Source: Escherichia phage CY1. Taken from it: 39,173 bases of DNA. The stretch is from the sequence record OM937123.1. One strand, 5' to 3'. Below the pieces are notes generated by a model that was not told the origin of the DNA, made no database searches, and saw only the letters and a list, made by a program, of their open reading frames with translations. Positions 1 through 39,113 of the stretch are shown piece after piece; positions within the stretch are counted from its first letter, which is position 1, and each line of letters opens with the position of its first letter. The position numbers and the translations under genes were made by a program.

Positions 1-127
1 GCGCGGTGGGATGTATAATGACGTCTCATTGGAGGGTATCGCAAACGTACTAATCGGTAAGGAGTAACATAATGGCGACTCGTGGTATTCGCAATAACAA
101 TCCGGGTAACATCCGGGTAAGTAAGGA
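1..127. repeat. 127-bp exact duplicate of window positions 39047-39173 (end of gene 15 plus start of gene 16); probable circularisation overlap
   Basis: The first 127 nt of the window match its last 127 nt by eye. The copy carries the gp15 stop and the gp16 start, so it lies inside coding sequence. Confidence 0.85.
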
Positions 128-3100
128 CCAATGGGAAGGAATGACTGGAGATGATGGCGCATTCGTCACCTTCGATAGTCCAGAGTCTGGCGTCCGAGCT
201 TTAGGTAAAAACCTGCTGTCCTACGGTCGCCAAGGTTATGACTCCATCGAGAAGATTATCAACCGATGGGCACCTCCTAACGAAAACGACACTCAGGCTT
301 ATATTGACTCAGTGGTTGCTGCTACTGGTATTCCAGCTACCCAGAGTCTCGACCTCTCAAACCCGGACACCCTGTCTTCTCTGGCGCAAGCTATCAGCTT
401 CCATGAGACAGGCTCCCGGTATGACCCTGAAGTCTATCAGAAGGGAGTCGAAAGAGCACTTAACGGTATCAGCCCAAAGACTCCACCAGTAAGCGCAAAC
501 GTATTTGACGCACTCACGGAAGGACTCAAGGCTAAACCTAAAGTAGCTCTGGGTGAGAACCTTCCGACCGCTGCTGGTCTAAACATTGAGGGTCAAGCAC
601 CTGAAGCTCCCAACGAATCGTTCGGTGAGATGTTCTATAAGTCTACTGGCGAGACCATGCAGGAGCGAGAAGACCGTTCTACGTGGTTTGGTTTCGGTGC
701 GGCTACAGAAGCTGAAGTGAAGAACTCTATGGTCGGCGTGGCTATCCGCGCTGGTCAGACCGAGGACTCACTTGATGTCATTGGCGATGTGTTCAACCCG
801 ACCCGCTGGAACAACCATAAATGGACCCGTGAGGAGCTTGACCAGATTCGTAACGCTGGGGTTCTGCCTCAGTATTACGGAGTCATTACGGGTGGCTCTC
901 CTCAGAACCTGACCGAGCTTATTAACTTGGCGCTTGAGAACCAGAAGTTGGACCAAGAGAGGGCCAAGTCTGGGACTGGTGCTCATTTAGCTGCTGGTTT
1001 GATTGGCGCTGGTGTGGACCCCCTGACCTACGTTCCTATCGCTGGACAGGTGGGTAAAGGCGGTAAACTGGTCAACAAGATGTTCACAGTGGCTGCCCAA
1101 GTTGGAGCACTATCTGGTGTGTCTGAGGTTGCCCGTACCTCAGTGGCTGGTGGTGATGCTCATGTGGCTGAAGCTATCCTTGGTGGTGCTCTATTCGGTG
1201 CAGGTATGACTGCTATCGCTGATGGCTTAGGTAGAGCCTTAGGTCGCAACACTAATGAGTTCGCTGGTCCAGCTACACGTCTGGAAGCCCGTGAGACCGC
1301 TCGTAACGTTGATGGTCAGGACCTGTCTCGTCTCCCTATTCAGGAAGGTGAGCAGACCTTTAGTCATCAGGGCGTTAAGTTCGCTGACGTGCCGAATGAG
1401 CCTGGAAGTGTTCGACTTGAGGATGGTTCAATCTTGATTGGCGAGAACCCTCTTAACCCTAAGACACGTCAAGTCTTTGACGAAGTGATTGAGCCGGAAC
1501 GTGCCGCTGCTGGTGTGAACCTTGGTGGACTTACCGAGATTGGCCTGAAGCTACTTCGGTCTGAGAACCCTGAGATTCGTGGAGTAGCTGCTGACTTAGT
1601 ACGTTCACCGACTGGTATGCAGTCTGGGGCCTCAGGTAAAATCGGGACCACTGCGTCTGACGCGTTCGAGAGACTTCGTGCTGTAGACCATCGGTTCTAC
1701 AACGACTTCGACGTTGCAGTTACTGAGGCACTCAAGGACCCGTACTTCCAGACAGCATTCTGGCGAGATAACTCAGCTCTGCGTGAGGATGTCCATAAGC
1801 GCGTAGCTTTGGCTATTGAAGATGGTAGTGGGAACCTGAAGTCTGAACTTACACCGGGGGAACTGAAAGTCTATGACCTGCTGAAGAACCTGTTTGATAC
1901 AAAGCGCGAGATGATGGAGAACCCAGCGATGTTTGGTCGTACAGACGCTAAGTCTATCTTTCCGGGTAGTAGATTCAAGGGAACCTACGTTCCTGTAGTC
2001 TACAGTTCTCCGATGAAGCAGCTTTATATCAATGAGCTTGGAAGCCCAGAGGCATTACAGGAGGCAATCAAGAAGTCATTTCTAGCAAGCTATGCGTCAA
2101 GACCTAAAGTCAAGGCTAGGATTGATGAATATCTGAAGGAGAAGCATAAGGACGTTTTCGCCAAAGCTGAAGCTGACGCCAAACTTGCGCCTGAGCGACC
2201 TCCTGTAGAATCAGCCCGTGACCAGATGAAACTGGACGATGCAGCTACACAGGCAATTGATAAGGTAGCGGAACTCAAAGATGTCCTTACCAACGCTGAG
2301 AAGCGAGTTGCAGACCGTGAAAAGAAACTCCAGAACTCCAAGGACAGACTGGCTTCGCATGAAGCTAAGCTGAAGGAGTTGGAAGAAAAACTAGCTGCTA
2401 AGCCTAATAGCAAGACCATTCCCGTTAAGATTGAGAGCCGGAAGCAGATGATTGAGACCCAGAAGTCTCACATTCGTATTAACACCGAGCGTCTCGAATA
2501 CACGAAAGGACAGGCTGCTAAGGTCAGAGACAGAATCACCAAAGCAACAACTGAAGCTGAAGCGGCTGTGACAGCTGCCAAAGGGAAGAAGACTTCTGTA
2601 GATGGTCATGCCACTACTACTACTGCTGGTGAAACTACATCTGGTAACGCATCTCAAGCAGCACCAGAGGTGACTATGGAGATGGTAGAGAAGTATGCTA
2701 ATGATAAGGCTTATGGTATCTCCCATACAGATCAGTTTGAGCGTTCATCCGTAATGGAAGAAAACATCAACGGTCTGGTCGGTCTGGAGAACAATAACTT
2801 CCTTGAGGCTCGCAACCTGTTCGATACCGACGTGGAAATCACCCTGCCAAATGGTAAGCAGTTCAGCGTAAACAGTCTACGTGAGTGGGACATGGACAAG
2901 ATTGTCCCGGCCTACAACCGTCGAGTTAATGGCGATATTGCTATCATGGCTGGTACAGGAAAAACCACTAAGGAAATGAAGGACTTGGTTGAGACCCTGA
3001 TGAACAAGGCTGGTGATGACGGCAAGTTGAAAGGTGAGGTCTCGACCTTACGTGACACCTTGAAGATTCTCACTGGTCGTGCCAGACGTGATGGTGCTGA

Positions 3101-4463
3101 CGATGCTGCCTTCGCTACAGTGATGCGCACAATGACAGACCTATCGTTCTTCGCTAAGAATGCCTACATGGGTGTTCAGAACTTAACGGAGATTGGTGGT
3201 ATGCTAGCTCGTGGTAACGTTCGTGCATTGCTACATGGAGTCCCGATGTTCCGTGACCTAGCCTTCCGTAACAAGAAGGTAGGGGCCTCAGAGATTAAGG
3301 ACCTGCACAATGTTATCTTCGGTAAGGAACTGGACGACTCAATCCGTCCGTCCAAACAGGATGTCATTGACCGTCTGCGAGCGTACAGTGACTTGAGTAA
3401 ACCAACAGCTACAGCTCTAGGGACTGCCAAGTATTACACTGGTGAACTTGCAGTACGCTCTCCATTCACTAAAGTCCTCAACGGCACGACAAACTACCTG
3501 TTAGATGCTGGACGTCAAGGCTTCCTGTCTGATATCGTGGAGCATAGTCTGACTGGCAGTAAGCGTAAGTTCGATGACCGCTGGCTGAAGACCGCTGGTA
3601 TCTCTGACGAGCAGTGGAAGGGCATTAAGTCCCTAATCCGTGAGTCAGTGACTCGTGGTCCAGACGGGAAGTACACCATCAAGGATAAGAAGGCGTTCAG
3701 TCAGGACCCAAGGGCTATGGACCTGTGGCGTATGGGTGACACCATCGCTGACGAAACGATACTCCGTCCTTATAAGCTATCCAACATGGATGCCAAGGCT
3801 TATGGTCCTCTCGCTAAGACTGTCCTTCAGTTTAAGAACTTCGTCATCAAGTCCATCAATGGGCGAACCATGCGAACCTTCTATAACGCCACGAAGAACA
3901 ACCGAGCGATGGACGCTGCTCTGTCCACTGTGATGTCTATGGGTCTAGCTGGTATCTACTACATGGCTCAGGCGCACGTCAAGGCTTACGCTATGCAGGA
4001 TGGTCGAGACCGTGATTACCTCAAGAAAGCTCTGGACCCGACGATGATTGGCTATGCGGCTCTGTCCCGTAGCTCGCATCTGGGCGGCCCACTTGGGGTA
4101 GCTAACATTCTGGGTGGCATCGCTGGGTATGAGGACACTAAGTTACTCCGCTCGTCTATCCTACCTCGTTCGCCTACAGAGAAGCCTGAACGTGCCATCG
4201 CGTATGGTGCAGCCACAAGTGACCCTGTGATGAATGTTGTTGGTAACTTCTTGGAGCAGGTTCCAGCTTTCGGATATGCTGCTAACGTTGGAGCTTCGGC
4301 TTACAACTTGGCTGGCTACCTCAAGGCTGATACTCGTGTCAACGAGCGTGACTACATGACCGGGATGTATAATACGTTCCGTGAACTGGTTCCGAACGAC
4401 CCACTTACCCAGAAGCTGTTGCTTGGAACGTTTGAGGAGCAAGGTATCCACATCAAGGACTAA
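72..4463 (+). CDS. gp16: Internal virion protein D (gp16 homologue, ejectosome/core protein), 1463 aa, with non-T7 N-terminal domain
   Basis: ATG with AAGGAG Shine-Dalgarno. From about aa 200 onward the translation tracks T7 gp16 (STWFGF..., VDPLTYVP, PEMVEKYA.DKAYGISH, NGDIAIM.GTGKTTKE, NDPLTQ.L). The first ~200 aa are unlike the T7 transglycosylase domain. Confidence 0.93.
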   Translation: MATRGIRNNNPGNIRVSKDQWEGMTGDDGAFVTFDSPESGVRALGKNLLSYGRQGYDSIEKIINRWAPPNENDTQAYIDSVVAATGIPATQSLDLSNPDTLSSLAQAISFHETGSRYDPEVYQKGVERALNGISPKTPPVSANVFDALTEGLKAKPKVALGENLPTAAGLNIEGQAPEAPNESFGEMFYKSTGETMQEREDRSTWFGFGAATEAEVKNSMVGVAIRAGQTEDSLDVIGDVFNPTRWNNHKWTREELDQIRNAGVLPQYYGVITGGSPQNLTELINLALENQKLDQERAKSGTGAHLAAGLIGAGVDPLTYVPIAGQVGKGGKLVNKMFTVAAQVGALSGVSEVARTSVAGGDAHVAEAILGGALFGAGMTAIADGLGRALGRNTNEFAGPATRLEARETARNVDGQDLSRLPIQEGEQTFSHQGVKFADVPNEPGSVRLEDGSILIGENPLNPKTRQVFDEVIEPERAAAGVNLGGLTEIGLKLLRSENPEIRGVAADLVRSPTGMQSGASGKIGTTASDAFERLRAVDHRFYNDFDVAVTEALKDPYFQTAFWRDNSALREDVHKRVALAIEDGSGNLKSELTPGELKVYDLLKNLFDTKREMMENPAMFGRTDAKSIFPGSRFKGTYVPVVYSSPMKQLYINELGSPEALQEAIKKSFLASYASRPKVKARIDEYLKEKHKDVFAKAEADAKLAPERPPVESARDQMKLDDAATQAIDKVAELKDVLTNAEKRVADREKKLQNSKDRLASHEAKLKELEEKLAAKPNSKTIPVKIESRKQMIETQKSHIRINTERLEYTKGQAAKVRDRITKATTEAEAAVTAAKGKKTSVDGHATTTTAGETTSGNASQAAPEVTMEMVEKYANDKAYGISHTDQFERSSVMEENINGLVGLENNNFLEARNLFDTDVEITLPNGKQFSVNSLREWDMDKIVPAYNRRVNGDIAIMAGTGKTTKEMKDLVETLMNKAGDDGKLKGEVSTLRDTLKILTGRARRDGADDAAFATVMRTMTDLSFFAKNAYMGVQNLTEIGGMLARGNVRALLHGVPMFRDLAFRNKKVGASEIKDLHNVIFGKELDDSIRPSKQDVIDRLRAYSDLSKPTATALGTAKYYTGELAVRSPFTKVLNGTTNYLLDAGRQGFLSDIVEHSLTGSKRKFDDRWLKTAGISDEQWKGIKSLIRESVTRGPDGKYTIKDKKAFSQDPRAMDLWRMGDTIADETILRPYKLSNMDAKAYGPLAKTVLQFKNFVIKSINGRTMRTFYNATKNNRAMDAALSTVMSMGLAGIYYMAQAHVKAYAMQDGRDRDYLKKALDPTMIGYAALSRSSHLGGPLGVANILGGIAGYEDTKLLRSSILPRSPTEKPERAIAYGAATSDPVMNVVGNFLEQVPAFGYAANVGASAYNLAGYLKADTRVNERDYMTGMYNTFRELVPNDPLTQKLLLGTFEEQGIHIKD

Positions 4464-30785: not shown

Positions 30786-30808
30786 ACTAAACTATCACTA
30801 TAGGGAGA
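30786..30808 (+). promoter_or_regulatory. Phage RNAP promoter (phi10-like, TATAGGGAGA), +1 near 30803
   Basis: GACTAAACTATCACTATAGGGAGACC is the copy closest to the strong T7 class III initiation region. Confidence 0.85.
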
Positions 30809-30910: not shown

Positions 30911-31954
30911 ATGGCAAACGTTCCGGGTCAGAAAATTGGTACAGACCAAGGTAAAGGCAAGTCCAGTTCAGACGCTCTAGCGTTGTTCCTGAAGGTATTT
31001 GCTGGTGAAGTCCTGACCGCATTCACTCGCCGCTCTGTAACTGCTGACAAGCATATTGTCCGTACCATTCAGAACGGTAAGTCTGCTCAGTTCCCGGTCA
31101 TGGGTCGCACCTCTGGTGTGTATCTGGCTCCGGGTGAGCGACTGTCCGATAAGCGTAAGGGTATTAAACATACCGAGAAAGTGATTACCATTGATGGTCT
31201 GCTGACTGCCGATGTGATGATTTTCGACATTGAAGACGCGATGAACCACTATGACGTGGCTGGCGAGTATTCCAACCAGTTGGGTGAAGCCCTGGCTATC
31301 GCTGCTGATGGTGCGGTGCTGGCTGAAATGGCGATCCTGTGTAACCTCCCAGCTGCATCCAACGAGAACATCGCTGGTCTGGGTACTGCGTCCGTACTGG
31401 AAGTTGGTAAGAAAGCTGACCTCGACACCCCGGCTAAACTGGGCGAAGCAATCATCGGTCAACTGACCATTGCTCGTGCGAAGCTGACCTCCAACTACGT
31501 TCCTGCTGGCGACCGTTACTTCTACACAACGCCGGACAACTACTCTGCAATCCTCGCGGCTCTGATGCCTAACGCTGCTAACTATGCTGCACTGATTGAT
31601 CCAGAGACTGGTAACATCCGTAACGTGATGGGCTTCGTTGTTGTTGAAGTTCCGCATCTGGTACAGGGTGGCGCTGGTGAGACTCGTGGTGCCGATGGTA
31701 TCTCTATCGCTTCTGGTCAGAAACACGCATTCCCGGCGACTGTTTCTGGAGACGTTAAAGTTGCTATGGACAACGTTGTTGGCCTGTTCTCTCACCGTTC
31801 TGCTGTGGGCACTGTGAAGCTGCGTGACTTGGCGCTGGAACGTGACCGTGACGTCGATGCTCAGGGTGACCTGATTGTTGGTAAGTACGCTATGGGTCAC
31901 GGTGGTCTGCGTCCTGAAGCGGCTGGCGCACTGGTTTTCAGCCCAGCGATGTAA
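30911..31954 (+). CDS. gp10A: Major capsid protein 10A, 347 aa
   Basis: GKSAQFPV.GRT, YLAPGE.L.DKRK.IKHTEKVITIDGLLTADV, EDAMNHYDV, YSAILAALMPNAANYAALIDPE, NVMGF.VVEVPHL, HRSAVGTVKLRDLALER and AMGHGGLRPEAAGA match T7 gp10A. Confidence 0.97.
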   Translation: MANVPGQKIGTDQGKGKSSSDALALFLKVFAGEVLTAFTRRSVTADKHIVRTIQNGKSAQFPVMGRTSGVYLAPGERLSDKRKGIKHTEKVITIDGLLTADVMIFDIEDAMNHYDVAGEYSNQLGEALAIAADGAVLAEMAILCNLPAASNENIAGLGTASVLEVGKKADLDTPAKLGEAIIGQLTIARAKLTSNYVPAGDRYFYTTPDNYSAILAALMPNAANYAALIDPETGNIRNVMGFVVVEVPHLVQGGAGETRGADGISIASGQKHAFPATVSGDVKVAMDNVVGLFSHRSAVGTVKLRDLALERDRDVDAQGDLIVGKYAMGHGGLRPEAAGALVFSPAM

Positions 31955-32085
31955 GCACATTTAGCCAACCTAACGTCGCTAAAGTAGCGGCTGCACCTGA
32001 AGAGGAGACTCTAACTCCTCAACAGAAAGCTGCGCGTACTCGTGCTGCGAACAGGGCCGCTAAACTGGCTGAGTCCAACAACTAA
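31933..32085 (+). CDS. gp10B: Putative -1 frameshift extension yielding minor capsid protein 10B (about 50 extra residues)
   Basis: Candidate slip site G GTT TTC at 31933-31939, four codons before the 10A stop. The -1 frame then stays open for about 50 codons to TAA at 32083-32085. Confidence 0.6.
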   Translation, partial: GFQPSDVSTFSQPNVAKVAAAPEEETLTPQQKAARTRAANRAAKLAESNN

Positions 32086-32091
32086 TTGAAA

Positions 32092-32128
32092 CCCCTTGGG
32101 TGCCTTCGGGTGCTTGAGGGGTTTTTTT
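32092..32128 (+). terminator. Rho-independent terminator (T7 Tphi-like) after the capsid gene
   Basis: CCCCTTGGGTGCCTTCGGGTGCTTGAGGGG stem followed by TTTTTTTGCT; compare T7 Tphi AACCCCTTGGGG...GAGGGGTTTTTTG. Confidence 0.8.
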
Positions 32129-32149: not shown

Positions 32150-32716
32150 ATGGCTCAATACATTCCACTGAATGCTAACGATGACTTAGATGCCATCAAC
32201 GATATGTTAGCTGCTATCGGTGAACCAGCAGTCCTACAGCTTGACGATGGGAACGCTGACGTCTCGAACGCTCAACGTATCCTGCATCGTGTCAATCGTC
32301 AGGTCCAAGCTAAAGGCTGGAACTTTAACATCAACGAATCTGCTGTACTGACACCTGATGTCCAAGACAACAGGATTAGATTCCTGCCGTCATACCTTCG
32401 TGTAATGACTGCCGGGGCCACCAGCTACTACAGCAACATGGGTGGATACCTGTACGACCTATCCACTCAGTCAACCACTTTCACCGACCCTATCACGGTA
32501 GAGCTTGTGGAGATGAAGCCATTCTCCGAGATGCCTGTGGTCTTCAGGGACTACATCGTCACTAAAGCTAGCCGTGAGTTCAACGCTAAGTTCTTCGGTA
32601 GCCAAGAGTCAGAGCTATACCTTCGTGAGCAGGAAGCAGAACTCTATCAGCAGGTTATGGAGTACGAGATGGACACTGGTCGCTACAACATGATGTCTGA
32701 CATCGGGAGGGACTAA
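32150..32716 (+). CDS. gp11: Tail tubular protein A (gene 11 homologue), 188 aa
   Basis: AIGEP.V..L....ADV.NA.RIL..VNRQ.Q..GW.FN, MGGY.YD.....T, YIVTKASR.FN..FFG and MEYEMD.G.YNM match T7 gp11. Confidence 0.93.
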   Translation: MAQYIPLNANDDLDAINDMLAAIGEPAVLQLDDGNADVSNAQRILHRVNRQVQAKGWNFNINESAVLTPDVQDNRIRFLPSYLRVMTAGATSYYSNMGGYLYDLSTQSTTFTDPITVELVEMKPFSEMPVVFRDYIVTKASREFNAKFFGSQESELYLREQEAELYQQVMEYEMDTGRYNMMSDIGRD

Positions 32717-32943
32717 TGGCTAGTCACAGCCTGAAGATTCACCGCCAGCACTTTGGTCCGGTACAGCTAGGTCTAAAGACAGCAGAGCTGAGACTTAACG
32801 ACCGGGACTTTAAGGTTGGCGATTGGCTTATCCTGAATGAGTGGGACAACGGGTATACTGGACAACAGGTAGCGCGTAAGGTTGTCCACATTGCTGACGT
32901 TGGTGACATCGCTGAAGGATACGTCCTAATGAGTATGATTTAA
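32716..32943 (+). CDS. Small ASCH/DUF3850-like protein, 75 aa, inserted between tail tubular genes A and B
   Basis: Pattern H.LKI....F..V..G.KT.E.R.NDRDF.VGD.L.L.EW....YTG as I recall it for DUF3850 (ASCH fold). Start overlaps the gp11 stop (TAATG); no counterpart at this site in T7. Confidence 0.6.
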   Translation: MASHSLKIHRQHFGPVQLGLKTAELRLNDRDFKVGDWLILNEWDNGYTGQQVARKVVHIADVGDIAEGYVLMSMI

Positions 32944-32952
32944 GGAGGGCCT

Positions 32953-35334: not shown

Positions 35335-35357
35335 CCTTAACTATCACTATAGGGACT
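35335..35357 (+). promoter_or_regulatory. Phage RNAP promoter (phi13-like), +1 near 35352, embedded in a 10-bp perfect inverted repeat
   Basis: CCTTAACTATCACTATAGGGACT, flanked by GGGCCTATAG (35320-35329) and CTATAGGCCC (35356-35365). Confidence 0.8.
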
Positions 35358-35386: not shown

Positions 35387-35845
35387 ATGTATATTCGCAA
35401 GGCTACGGAACCAGATGTCCACTACTTTCTGTGGCATCTTTCAGCAGATGATGTTAATGAGTGCAAAGCAAACTATGGGTCAACCGTTGGCCTCTCTGAA
35501 AGACTGCTTAAGCACCTATCTCAGTCATCTGTGGTTTTAACGAACGGTGTAGGCGAAGTGTTTGCCTATGGTGGAAACCAAGGTGATAACGTATGGTTCT
35601 TGACTTCCGGTCTGGTCTATAAGCTGAGACCTAAAGAGAAGCGAGAGTTCATAAAGCGTATCTCTGAGTACAGGGACTTAATGTTAGACCAATACGGGAC
35701 CATCTGGAACTACGTGTGGTCAGGCAATAAGTCTCACATTAAATTCTTGAAGTTGCTTGGCGCTAAATTCCATGATGATTGGACTATCAGCCCAGTAACT
35801 GGTGAGCGTTTTCAATTATTCACTATCTCTAAGGAGGAAACGTGA
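35387..35845 (+). CDS. gp13: Internal virion protein A (gene 13 homologue), 152 aa
   Basis: Synteny before gp14; C-terminal half (YKLRPKEKREF, WNYVWSGNKSHIKFLKLLGAKFHDDW, GERFQLFTI) resembles T7 gp13 as I recall it. Confidence 0.8.
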   Translation: MYIRKATEPDVHYFLWHLSADDVNECKANYGSTVGLSERLLKHLSQSSVVLTNGVGEVFAYGGNQGDNVWFLTSGLVYKLRPKEKREFIKRISEYRDLMLDQYGTIWNYVWSGNKSHIKFLKLLGAKFHDDWTISPVTGERFQLFTISKEET

Positions 35846-36228
35846 CTAAGATTTGTACCGTCTGTAAAATTGAAAAGCCACTCGAAGCGTTCTCTCCGAG
35901 GAAAGATTCTAAGTGTGGTGTACGCTCTGCCTGTAAGTTGTGTCATAATGGCCGGAGCCATAAGAACAAGGGATACGAGAAGTATCACATTACGCAGATA
36001 GAATATGATTACATCCTAAAAGAGCAGGGTGGAGTCTGTGCAATCTGCAAGACAACAGGAACTAGCCGTGGACTATGCGTCGACCATTGTCACGACTCTG
36101 GTACGGTTCGTGGTATCCTGTGTCACACCTGCAACCTAAAGCTGACCCGTAGAAACTATCCATCTAAATGTGAAGACTTCGAAGGTAAGGCTGCTGAGTA
36201 TCTGGCTATAGGCCGGAAGGGGGATTAG
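35842..36228 (+). CDS. HNH endonuclease (Endo VII-like, probable homing endonuclease), 128 aa, GTG start
   Basis: HNH signature CVDHCHDSGTVRGILCHTCN plus CxxC zinc-ligand pairs (CTVC, CAIC, CHTC); SD AAGGAGG; start overlaps the gp13 stop. T7 has no gene between 13 and 14. Confidence 0.85.
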   Translation: MTKICTVCKIEKPLEAFSPRKDSKCGVRSACKLCHNGRSHKNKGYEKYHITQIEYDYILKEQGGVCAICKTTGTSRGLCVDHCHDSGTVRGILCHTCNLKLTRRNYPSKCEDFEGKAAEYLAIGRKGD

Positions 36229-36830: not shown

Positions 36831-39113
36831 ATGGCTAGTAATATTCAATCAGCTCTGGCTAATCGGACTATGGGTCGTGGCAGAGCGCCGGGTAAAACTA
36901 TCGCCGTCAACTATCAAGCAGCCAACGTTCAGGCTCCGACTGGGGACTCCGGGCTGGCTCGTGCATTGACTAACTTCGTTGAGTCTGGGACAGGATTGTA
37001 CAAGCAGTTCAAGGACGAGGAGAAGACACGGGCCGACGAGCGGTCTAACGAGATTATCCGTAAGCTGACACCTCAGCAAAGACGTGAGGCTATCCAGAAC
37101 GGCACATTGCTGTATCAGGATGACCCTTACGCTATGGAAGCACTTAGAGTCAAGACTGGTCGTAATGCTGCCTTTGCTGTAGACGACGAGATTACCGTTA
37201 AGATTCAGAACGGTGAGTTCCGTACACGTCAAGACATGGAAGAGTATCGCCACCAGCGACTTCAGGATGCAGCCAAGTCCTATGCTGAAGAGGCGGGTAT
37301 TAACCCTACCGACGAGTTCTTCCAGCGTGGATTCAACGATAACATCACGGACCGAAACATCGCTATCTACGGGTCCTTCAATAAGTATTTCAGCAAGCAG
37401 TCTGAAGAGACAGCAATGTTGAACACTCGTATTGAGCTGAACTCGTTCCTTAACGATGGGGACCTGATGCGTTCGCCTGAGTCTGGAAAGACCTTCATGG
37501 CCTACCTTCGGGATGGACTGACGACTGCTGCTATACCTTCGGACCAGAGAGCACGAGAGGTCATCACCCAGACGGTCCGTGACGCAATCCAGAAGTCAGG
37601 AGGCTCAAACTTCCTACAGCAAGTCCGTGGCGAGCGTATCACCCTTAATGGTGTTGACGCTACCATCGAAGAGATTGTAGGACCTGACGTCTTCAATGCT
37701 GCTATGGTTGAGGCCCAAGGTACTGAGTATAAACTGGTGGCTAAGTATCAGGAAGACTTGGCGTTAGGCGTTCAGTCTGCGATTCTTCAGGATGACCCAA
37801 CCATTGGTCTGGCCCAGATTCAGAAACTCAAGGAGCAGAACAACCTGCTTCAACCGGGTGAAGAACTCACGCCTCAGCGTCAGATGCTTATTAATGCCGA
37901 AGCCAGCTTGCTTGAAGCGGTCAAGCGTAAGTCTGCTGAACAGGCGAAGGAGAACACTAAGTTAATCCAGACCCAGAACAAGCAACTGGTCATTGACCAA
38001 GTGTATCAGCGACGTCTGGCTGGGGACAATGTGTCCACCAACTATGAGGACCTTCCGGTCTCTGAAGCTACAGGAGAGTTCAAGCGTTCAGACATGAACA
38101 ACTATGCGTCTGCCAAGCTACAGCAGATTGACCAGATGGACATCCCTGAGGCTGCTAAGGACGCTCAGAAGGTGGCATTGTTGAGGGCTGACACTAACAA
38201 TGGTCCTTTCCGTAATGCCTTCCAGACGCTTACTCAGGACGCTGCTGGTGAGTGGCAAGCTGCGGTCATCCGTGGGCAGTACGACCCAGACAAGATGCAA
38301 CGCTTCGAATCTCTTCGTCGTTCCTACACTCAGGACCCTTCAAGTTTTGCTGCTCTGTATCCTGACCAAGCTCAGTTGTTCTCTACGTTCGACCAGATGG
38401 ACAAGATGGGTCTGGACCCTCAGACGATGATTGAAGCTGATAAGCAAGCTGCAAGTCAAAGCCGTGAGATGCGCATGGAGTCAGACAAGGCGTGGCAGGA
38501 GTTGAAGAACGACTCCAAGAACACCCAGTTGTCTCGTCTCCCAACGTCTCTGGATGCAAGTGCTCGTAAGGTCTGGGACTCATGGTACTATCGTACAGGT
38601 AACGCTGACGCTGCAACTCAGCAGACTCAACGCTGGCTGAATGAAAATACCGTAACGTTCCAGTCTGAAGGTTCTGACGGTAAGTCCATTGGCATGGTGT
38701 CAAAGCACCAGCTTATGGTAGGGGATAACCCAGAGTCGTGGCAGGTTGGTCGAGACATTATCGACACCGCTCGTAAGCAGCTCATTAAGGCCAACCCTTG
38801 GGTAGTGAACTCTCAGTTGTCCGTTGTTGAACAGAACGGCTCTATCTTCCTCCAAGACGCTACAGGGACTATTCGTATTCGCTACGATAAAGAACTTGTA
38901 GGTAAACTCTACCGCGAACAACAGCAGAAGGCACAAGATGCCGCATACGCTAAGGCAGAACGTGAAGCTAACAAGCGAGCGCGTATCGTCGGGACTAAAG
39001 CTGCTGGTGACAAACGTCGAGCTGACCGAGAGGCCAACATCGAGAAGCGCGGTGGGATGTATAATGACGTCTCATTGGAGGGTATCGCAAACGTACTAAT
39101 CGGTAAGGAGTAA
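36831..39113 (+). CDS. gp15: Internal virion protein C (gene 15 homologue), 760 aa
   Basis: Size (T7 gp15 is about 747 aa), synteny directly before gp16, SD AGAGGAGG; its last 22 codons are duplicated at window positions 1-67. Confidence 0.9.
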   Translation: MASNIQSALANRTMGRGRAPGKTIAVNYQAANVQAPTGDSGLARALTNFVESGTGLYKQFKDEEKTRADERSNEIIRKLTPQQRREAIQNGTLLYQDDPYAMEALRVKTGRNAAFAVDDEITVKIQNGEFRTRQDMEEYRHQRLQDAAKSYAEEAGINPTDEFFQRGFNDNITDRNIAIYGSFNKYFSKQSEETAMLNTRIELNSFLNDGDLMRSPESGKTFMAYLRDGLTTAAIPSDQRAREVITQTVRDAIQKSGGSNFLQQVRGERITLNGVDATIEEIVGPDVFNAAMVEAQGTEYKLVAKYQEDLALGVQSAILQDDPTIGLAQIQKLKEQNNLLQPGEELTPQRQMLINAEASLLEAVKRKSAEQAKENTKLIQTQNKQLVIDQVYQRRLAGDNVSTNYEDLPVSEATGEFKRSDMNNYASAKLQQIDQMDIPEAAKDAQKVALLRADTNNGPFRNAFQTLTQDAAGEWQAAVIRGQYDPDKMQRFESLRRSYTQDPSSFAALYPDQAQLFSTFDQMDKMGLDPQTMIEADKQAASQSREMRMESDKAWQELKNDSKNTQLSRLPTSLDASARKVWDSWYYRTGNADAATQQTQRWLNENTVTFQSEGSDGKSIGMVSKHQLMVGDNPESWQVGRDIIDTARKQLIKANPWVVNSQLSVVEQNGSIFLQDATGTIRIRYDKELVGKLYREQQQKAQDAAYAKAEREANKRARIVGTKAAGDKRRADREANIEKRGGMYNDVSLEGIANVLIGKE

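Follow-up and report, generated by a model that had tools for sequence, protein, structure and literature searches.

A minimal ASCH-type DUF3850 gene at the gene 11/gene 12 junction of a Kayfunavirus genome

Between the tail genes 11 and 12 of a circularly permuted Kayfunavirus genome (K1F/EcoDS1 group, Studiervirinae), here called the window (the whole stretch of 39,173 nt that was analysed), lies a small gene whose product belongs, with very little doubt, to the DUF3850 family of the ASCH superfamily. The best overall explanation of its function is a minimal barrel that would hold a single modified nucleobase and erase its modification. We put the probability of this reading at about 0.4, a figure set by the proposed mechanism as its weakest link.

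Neither the gene nor its family is new. Annotation of the gene at this position goes back to the deposit of EcoDS1, in which the ortholog (ACF15818) is listed as "unknown product." The CR44b ortholog is gene 11.05, and other orthologs carry the labels "RNA-binding protein," "DUF3850 domain-containing protein," or "activating signal cointegrator." The GenBank genomes in which it is annotated number well above one hundred, and part of these records use the DUF3850 or ASCH label. Orthologs in Kayfunavirus are alike in position (genes 11/12) and in length (75 amino acids), with identities of up to 98.7%; there is no material difference between them, and the window copy is another allele. The initial annotation had described the role of the gene as unknown. 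This still stands, as a literature search on DUF3850 did not find a functional test of any member.

The ORF that had been proposed at 32716-32943 was confirmed on the + strand with exactly these coordinates, and the TAATG overlap from which translational coupling with gp11 had been suggested is present in the sequence (Table 1). In the orthologue comparison, the overlap was retained in EcoDS1, CtuP_B1, Eclo_IJM, and the loci L008 and L009. The GGAGG element that precedes the ORF serves gp12 in K1F, where the junction reads GGGAGGGACTAATGCC. An equivalent of the second GGAGG, located between the ORF and gp12, precedes gp12 in every gene-carrying relative compared. Genes 11 and 12 of T7, described in the initial annotation as adjacent, are only 23 bp apart with no ORF between them; the gene is thus accessory, as had been claimed, being extra relative to T7 and also to K1F, the type species of the genus. 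A 56-amino-acid antisense ORF (32739..32909) in the ORF list lies opposite the DUF3850 gene. A scan of the whole window against Rfam yielded zero matches at gathering thresholds and so does not indicate a known RNA element on either strand of the ORF. The ORF and the genome have the same GC content (0.498 each); composition is therefore uninformative on recent transfer.

Table 1. Positions of the DUF3850 gene, its junction signals, and neighboring features in the window
Feature	Position	Strand	Basis or remark
phi10-equivalent promoter, nearest upstream	30790..30806	+	exact match to AACTATCACTATAGGGA
T-phi-like terminator hairpin 5' of gene 11	32088..32125	+	17-bp stem followed by T run; boundary of the transcription unit
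Gene 11, tail tubular protein A/gatekeeper, 188 aa	32150..32716	+	Pfam Tube, 1.3e-46
Shine-Dalgarno GGAGG for the ORF	32706..32710	+	within the final gp11 codons, 5 nt 5' of ATG
TAATG stop/start overlap, gp11/ORF	32714..32718	+	gp11 TAA 32714-32716, ORF ATG 32716-32718
DUF3850/minimal-ASCH gene	32716..32943, stop codon included	+	75 aa
237-bp segment absent from K1F and ZG49	32716..32952	.	one clean gap in the ZG49 alignment
Codons G19-L-K21-T-A-E24-L-R26-L-N28-D29-R30	32770..32805	+	ASCH GxKxxExR plus NDR
GGAGG for gp12 in insert-bearing genomes	32944..32948	+	sequence
Gene 12, nozzle/tail tubular protein B, 785 aa	32953..35310	+	Pfam Phage_nozzle, E=0
phi13-equivalent promoter, next downstream	35339..35355	+	EcoDS1 phi13 annotation

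The window opens just upstream of gp16 (72-4463) and closes with gp15 (36831-39113). Given this circular permutation, the physical ends and the terminal repeat should be internal, at approximately 9.6 to 11.1 kb. The region examined is 98.2% identical to Escherichia phage TM1 and 96% identical to EcoDS1. The phage promoter AACTATCACTATAGG(G/A)A was found at 11 sites versus 0.11 expected, all of them on the + strand. The promoter scan of the window detected no phage promoter between 30806 and 35339, and neither a phage promoter nor a terminator was found between the T-phi-like terminator, at whose equivalent place EcoDS1 has an annotated terminator, and phi13. A scan for sigma-70 promoters near the gene gave background levels. 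Since no promoter or terminator intervenes, the gene is cotranscribed with genes 11 and 12, and by these sequence signals it lies on a read-through transcript with both. This agrees with the initial annotation, in which transcription with the structural genes had been proposed; by analogy with T7, expression would be late. The segment from the gene 10A stop to the terminator (31954-32088) corresponds to the EcoDS1 "region of similarity to gp10B," which suggests that a minor capsid protein may be made by frameshifting, as it is in T7. At 35842-36228 (+), gene 13.5, with a GTG start that overlaps the gp13 stop, encodes a 128-amino-acid Endonuclease VII-like protein (PF02945, 6.3e-17). It is present in EcoDS1, gene 14 follows gene 13 directly in K1F, and it is probably a free-standing homing endonuclease.

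The DUF3850/ASCH identity suggested in the initial annotation, with an HMM search as the check, was borne out by profile, PDB sequence match, and fold. Both profiles scored above their cutoffs: DUF3850 (PF12961) with an E value of 2.8e-19 and 69.5 bits versus 22.9, covering profile positions 2 to 76 of 77, and ASCH (PF04266) with an E value of 1.4e-5 and 26.2 bits versus 21.2, covering positions 2 to 61 of 103 only. PHROG 986 matched at 2.7e-35, and a search of NCBIfam with the ORF protein gave no match. PADLOC returned only PDC-M07B (E=0.0073, 14 bits, 34 residues), a match so weak and partial that it provides no tie to known defence systems.

The ORF protein also carries the DUF3850 signature against which it was tested, K-T-x-E-[LIF]-R-x-N-D-R followed by G-D, of which the NDR after the octapeptide is a DUF3850-specific extension. 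Residues K21, E24, R26, N28, D29, and R30 were invariant in two alignments (A1 and A3). Among 40 diverse members, G35 was also invariant, D36 nearly so, and Y69, located in the last strand, was nearly invariant as well. Altogether, the invariant or nearly invariant set comprises H4, K7, G19, K21, E24, R26, N28, D29, R30, G35, D36, E42, G49, and Y69, and H58 was nearly invariant in two of three alignments. The AlphaFold2 model (pLDDT 84, pTM 0.68) is a barrel of five to six strands in which a single helix follows strand 1, and it has the fold of 3IUW, a crystal structure solved for DUF3850. Structure comparison gave figures of 8.8 for PH0355, 7.8 for YqfB, 7.4 for PF0470, 7.0 for ZmASCH, and about 5 to 6.6 for YTH domains; a sequence-profile search of the PDB returned only 3IUW, plus a marginal 1XNE. 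On the basis of the model, the protein is predicted to be an 8.5-kDa minimal ASCH/PUA-like beta-barrel. Its pI is 6.4; stand-alone DUF3850 proteins have a median pI of 6.0, and 80% lie below 7.

Comparison of six orthologues by the Nei-Gojobori method yielded dN/dS values of 0.13 to 0.24, with dS near or beyond saturation, whereas those of gp11 in the same genomes were 0.03 to 0.06. These figures place the DUF3850 gene under purifying selection and show it to evolve faster than gp11. Twelve columns were invariant among 21 homologues of 47 to 97% identity, and members with at least 65% identity to the ORF aligned without indels. The dN/dS values together with the 12 invariant columns exclude a chance ORF, and from these comparisons we infer a real, translated gene.

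The distribution among related phages, which the initial annotation had named as a point to check, proved to be common but not universal in Kayfunavirus records. When 60 evenly spaced records were sampled from the 211 matching the K1F junction, the gene was present in about 45 (approximately three quarters), the site was empty in the K1F manner in 9 and in the SH3-like manner, with a span of ~309 bp, in 5, and the gene was replaced in 1 (LI10P1). It is not required wherever gp11 and gp12 occur, being absent from T7, K1F, ZG49, IMM-002, SH3, and SH4. In K1F, the gene 11 stop and the gene 12 start form the same TAATG, and the window proteins are identical to those of K1F at 185 of 188 positions for gp11 (98%) and 762 of 785 for gp12 (97%). 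An imperfect repeat, GGAGGGaCTaATG / GGAGGGcCT-ATG, flanks the 237-bp segment. Empty sites appear to be of two kinds. The K1F type reads GACTAATGCC, and the other is seen in IMM-002; the SH3-like records, NC_031123 (SH3), NC_031018 (SH4), MN067430, PQ227829, and NC_048025, resemble IMM-002 in span.

IMM-002 (L005 735-800) has an empty site that retains the ORF-to-gp12 spacer, TAATAGAGGAGGTGCTATG, with its GGAGG. The retained spacer indicates a secondary deletion of the gene and hence repeated, independent loss. Orthologues of 65 to 69% identity keep the gene 11/12 position, which speaks for long residence with recurrent losses. In LI10P1 (OZ035803.1, L102 300-430), only codons 1 to 5 (MASHN) are left, joined to the C-terminal remnant of an Endo VII/HNH protein, HETGEVRGLLCRHCNKSLGG, and in Hafnia phages the gene is accompanied by a 146-amino-acid HNH endonuclease before gp12 (yong1, L021 1155-1595). 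Gene turnover is thus concentrated at the gp11/gp12 junction, a hot spot that tolerates insertions. In a Przondovirus record, PP734007, a homing endonuclease is likewise given where gp12 begins. The only virion proteomics that we found for Kayfunavirus covered SH3 and SH4 (PMC4925675), and because both phages are devoid of the gene, this data set is uninformative. K1F does without the gene and yet has nearly the same gp11 and gp12 as the window, so these tail proteins work in either state; the gene is therefore very probably not a tail component, and its product non-structural and dispensable.

A profile search of 1.84 billion representatives collected 16,106 clusters with a threshold of E<=1e-3 and 5,344 with one of 1e-10; the 16,106, which are 50%-identity clusters, derive mostly from phages and prophages. 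By tblastn, the gene was found in 556 phage records, including lambdoid, P2-like, T1-like, Listeria, Enterococcus, Gordonia, Clostridium, and cyanobacterial phages. The nearest homologues outside the T7-like phages (57 to 65% identity) occupy lambdoid replication/nin regions of temperate phages, downstream of DnaB and adjoining NinB, NinG, NinX, or RusA. In a P2-like phage, the family gene directly follows replication gene A, and in T1-like and 44-kb coliphages it is found among small early genes. The pattern E[LIF]RxNDR[DNG][YF] retrieved 546 viral loci. Immediate same-strand neighbors were scanned at 70 non-redundant IMG/VR loci, and their Pfam matches were counted as a pool. The P2 GPA replication protein was the neighbor at 7 of the 70 loci, a Dam-type D12 methyltransferase at 6 (at least 4 with near-identical coordinates and possibly from one lineage), a DksA/TraR zinc finger at 4 to 5, NinB and DUF551 at 3 each, SSB at 2, and DnaB, RdgC, exonucleases, and PAPS reductase at 1 each. 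Outside Kayfunavirus, the modules that contain the gene are therefore those of DNA replication and recombination; they are neither structural nor translation-related. Judging by these contexts, its source was most likely a temperate enterobacterial phage, from whose replication/nin module it would have been captured into a permissive T7-like junction.

Some members of the family are arranged differently. In Yersinia phage P37 (P2-like; L012 3986-4441), DUF3850 forms the N-terminal part of a protein of ~150 amino acids encoded after gene A. At some IMG/VR loci (L056, L063, L071, and L082), the family gene lies between an upstream ORF of ~272 amino acids and a downstream ORF of GPA size; Dam and GPA are assigned here from Pfam counts pooled over the loci and not locus by locus. 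The arrangement fits the association of ASCH with N6A-methyltransferases described by Iyer et al. The 97 longer family members (alignment A2) mostly carry unannotated extensions; the annotated fusions, to DUF551 (11), dATP/dGTP pyrophosphohydrolase (1), and LexA/HTH (1), are so few that they are too thin for assigning a function. In many enterobacterial prophage members of this alignment, there is a proline-rich linker, and the C terminus is extended by a stretch that contains a CRAAML-like motif.

Among known relatives, the closest in fold is the structural-genomics DUF3850 structure 3IUW, an "activating signal cointegrator" of E. faecalis V583. It is a Gram-positive bacterial protein of 83 amino acids, in contrast to the 75-amino-acid phage protein, and the sources consulted report neither a function nor a ligand for it. 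E. coli YqfB (PDB 1TE7/9KYF) is an N4-acetylcytidine amidohydrolase and an ASCH protein of the "GKTR" type. In an hhalign comparison, G19, K21, T22, and R26 fell on identical residues of YqfB, and E24 fell opposite its catalytic Thr24; the alignment covered only phage residues 10 to 47, at 71% probability, and stopped at YqfB residue 49. The general acid of YqfB, Glu74 in a C-terminal helical segment, has no counterpart in the phage protein, in which the region of YqfB residues ~60 to 90 is absent. Owing to the change of Thr24 to Glu and the lack of the Glu74 segment, the phage protein is not a YqfB-type amidohydrolase.

The glutamate-type ASCH proteins TthASCH, EOLA1, and TRIP4 are like the phage protein in octapeptide type and in having Lys, Glu, and Arg. 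Unlike it, they are 120 to 160 amino acids long with additional C-terminal elements. In TthASCH, a second hydrophobic/aromatic contact, Tyr81, comes from the C-terminal part. All 19 of the ASCH proteins tested in one 2026 bioRxiv study, including these three, are reported to have removed ac4C from tRNA, and the octapeptide Lys and Glu were essential in the glutamate type (10.64898/2026.02.27.708502). The 19 proteins include no DUF3850 or phage member. By the account given in that study, the authors of the YqfB-ac4C structure reported glutamate-type ASCH proteins to be inactive on ac4C (10.64898/2026.02.27.708502); catalysis by GKER types is therefore contested. The same domain as in the phage protein, likewise phage-enriched, occurs in ParB-CTPase-DUF3850 fusions of prophages (PNAS 2025, doi 10.1073/pnas.2527592122). 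In those proteins, its fusion partner is a CTP-binding ParB fold and the gene is a neighbor of parA, whereas the phage gene stands alone in the tail operon of a lytic phage. With the YTH, EVE, and SRA readers of the PUA-like superfamily, a sequence relationship was undetectable, and their conserved aromatic cage is absent from the phage protein.

We propose that the barrel would hold a single nucleobase in a polar pocket made up of the invariant K21-E24-R26 of the octapeptide and N28-D29-R30, with the nearly invariant D36, E42, and Y69 and, in many members, H58 as further conserved residues. That the conserved residues would form one pocket follows from the ASCH topology by analogy. The Lys/Glu dyad might then hydrolyse an exocyclic N-acyl group similar to that of ac4C, as in the "GKER" ASCH enzymes. 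The substrate would be a nucleoside or a base within a nucleic acid, and the protein would act as an "eraser" of base modifications. A small enzyme that holds a nucleobase is favoured because of the Lys/Glu/Arg set, the charged nature of the conserved residues, and the acidic pI, which resembles that of the small-molecule enzyme YqfB and differs from that of a non-specific nucleic-acid binder. For a DUF3850 protein, hydrolysis as such remains tentative, resting on analogy with ASCH enzymes, and we consider it somewhat less probable than its absence. Removal of ac4C would have no obvious benefit for a lytic T7-like phage, and the replication, recombination, and Dam neighbors, together with the ParB fusions, are no less in keeping with a role in binding DNA. 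The gene would be located at the 11/12 junction because this junction tolerates insertions.

Such a binding role could be that of a reader without catalysis that recognises a modified base in DNA, for example N6-methyladenine or a modified cytosine. It would hold the flipped-out base and either mask sites from modification-dependent nucleases or mark the DNA for a partner. Associations with replication genes, Dam, and ParB, the ASCH associations recorded in the literature, and the reader functions present in the wider PUA-like superfamily all speak for it. YTH, EVE, and SRA domains are usually fused to effector domains; the phage protein, at 75 amino acids, has no effector domain and no evident output. 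Like most of the family, it has an acidic to neutral pI, its alignment contains no conserved aromatic cage, and the conserved K, E, R, N, D, R, D, and E are mainly charged and look more like a catalytic network. As at least four of the six Dam neighbors are near-identical in coordinates, the independence of that association is limited, and on balance we regard a reader, the main rival, as rather unlikely, although nearly as likely as the hydrolase. The PHROG-derived label would instead make the product an RNA-binding protein that acts on host tRNA or rRNA or on phage late mRNA and modulates translation or RNA stability. Against this, the label is a transferred prediction, the pI is acidic, the neighborhoods are DNA modules and not translation or RNA genes, and several stand-alone ASCH catalytic domains need an additional HTH domain for tRNA binding. 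RNA binding is the weakest of the nucleic-acid readings and, in our judgment, quite improbable; the transferred label warrants caution.

The position of the gene invites two other explanations. If the product were a tail-assembly factor or minor virion protein, coupling could keep it in a fixed ratio to gp11. However, K1F, ZG49, SH3, SH4, and IMM-002 form their tails from genomes devoid of the gene, and every other phage lineage has it in early or replication regions. The similarities to hub proteins are generic barrel matches that score well below the ASCH matches, and the coupling is inherited from the site, since gp12 of K1F uses the same TAATG. A role in the tail is scarcely tenable, and natural deletion variants effectively exclude a tail chaperone or virion protein. 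The gene might also be a selfish or hitch-hiking passenger that brings no benefit to the phage, located at an insertion hot spot linked to homing endonucleases. The HNH gene at the junction in Hafnia phages, the Endo VII remnant in LI10P1, and the several losses of the gene would be expected of such a passenger. The dN/dS values of 0.13 to 0.24 and the lack of frameshifts and indels in orthologues down to 65% identity are not, and the large number of clusters, mostly from phages and prophages, argues for a selectable function. The protein itself has no nuclease domain. Pfam finds no HNH, Endo VII, GIY-YIG, or LAGLIDADG domain in the ORF, on which ground a homing cassette was rejected, and nuclease genes adjoin or replace the gene in other phages only. 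We hold a pure passenger to be very improbable.

The gene itself is ordinary, and the interest of the finding rests on the function of DUF3850, a very large phage-borne family with ~16,000 clusters at 50% identity. ASCH proteins accompany (PIN)-GNAT-EVE operons. On a broader but distinctly unlikely view, DUF3850 would be a large counter-defence family of phages and mobile elements that acts on modified nucleobases, either by erasing an acyl or exocyclic-N mark set by GNAT-type toxins or defence modules of the host or, alternatively, by shielding methylated phage DNA from modification-dependent nucleases. For annotation, the DNA-module contexts and the acidic proteins caution against the label "RNA-binding protein." Kayfunaviruses occur naturally in pairs that have near-identical tail genes and differ in whether they carry the gene, and such pairs would allow a direct test of the counter-defence reading. 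A clean presence/absence difference of exactly 237 bp, within a lytic genome of 39 kb, makes them a handy test bed for whether minimal ASCH domains act as erasers or readers of base modifications or in some other way.
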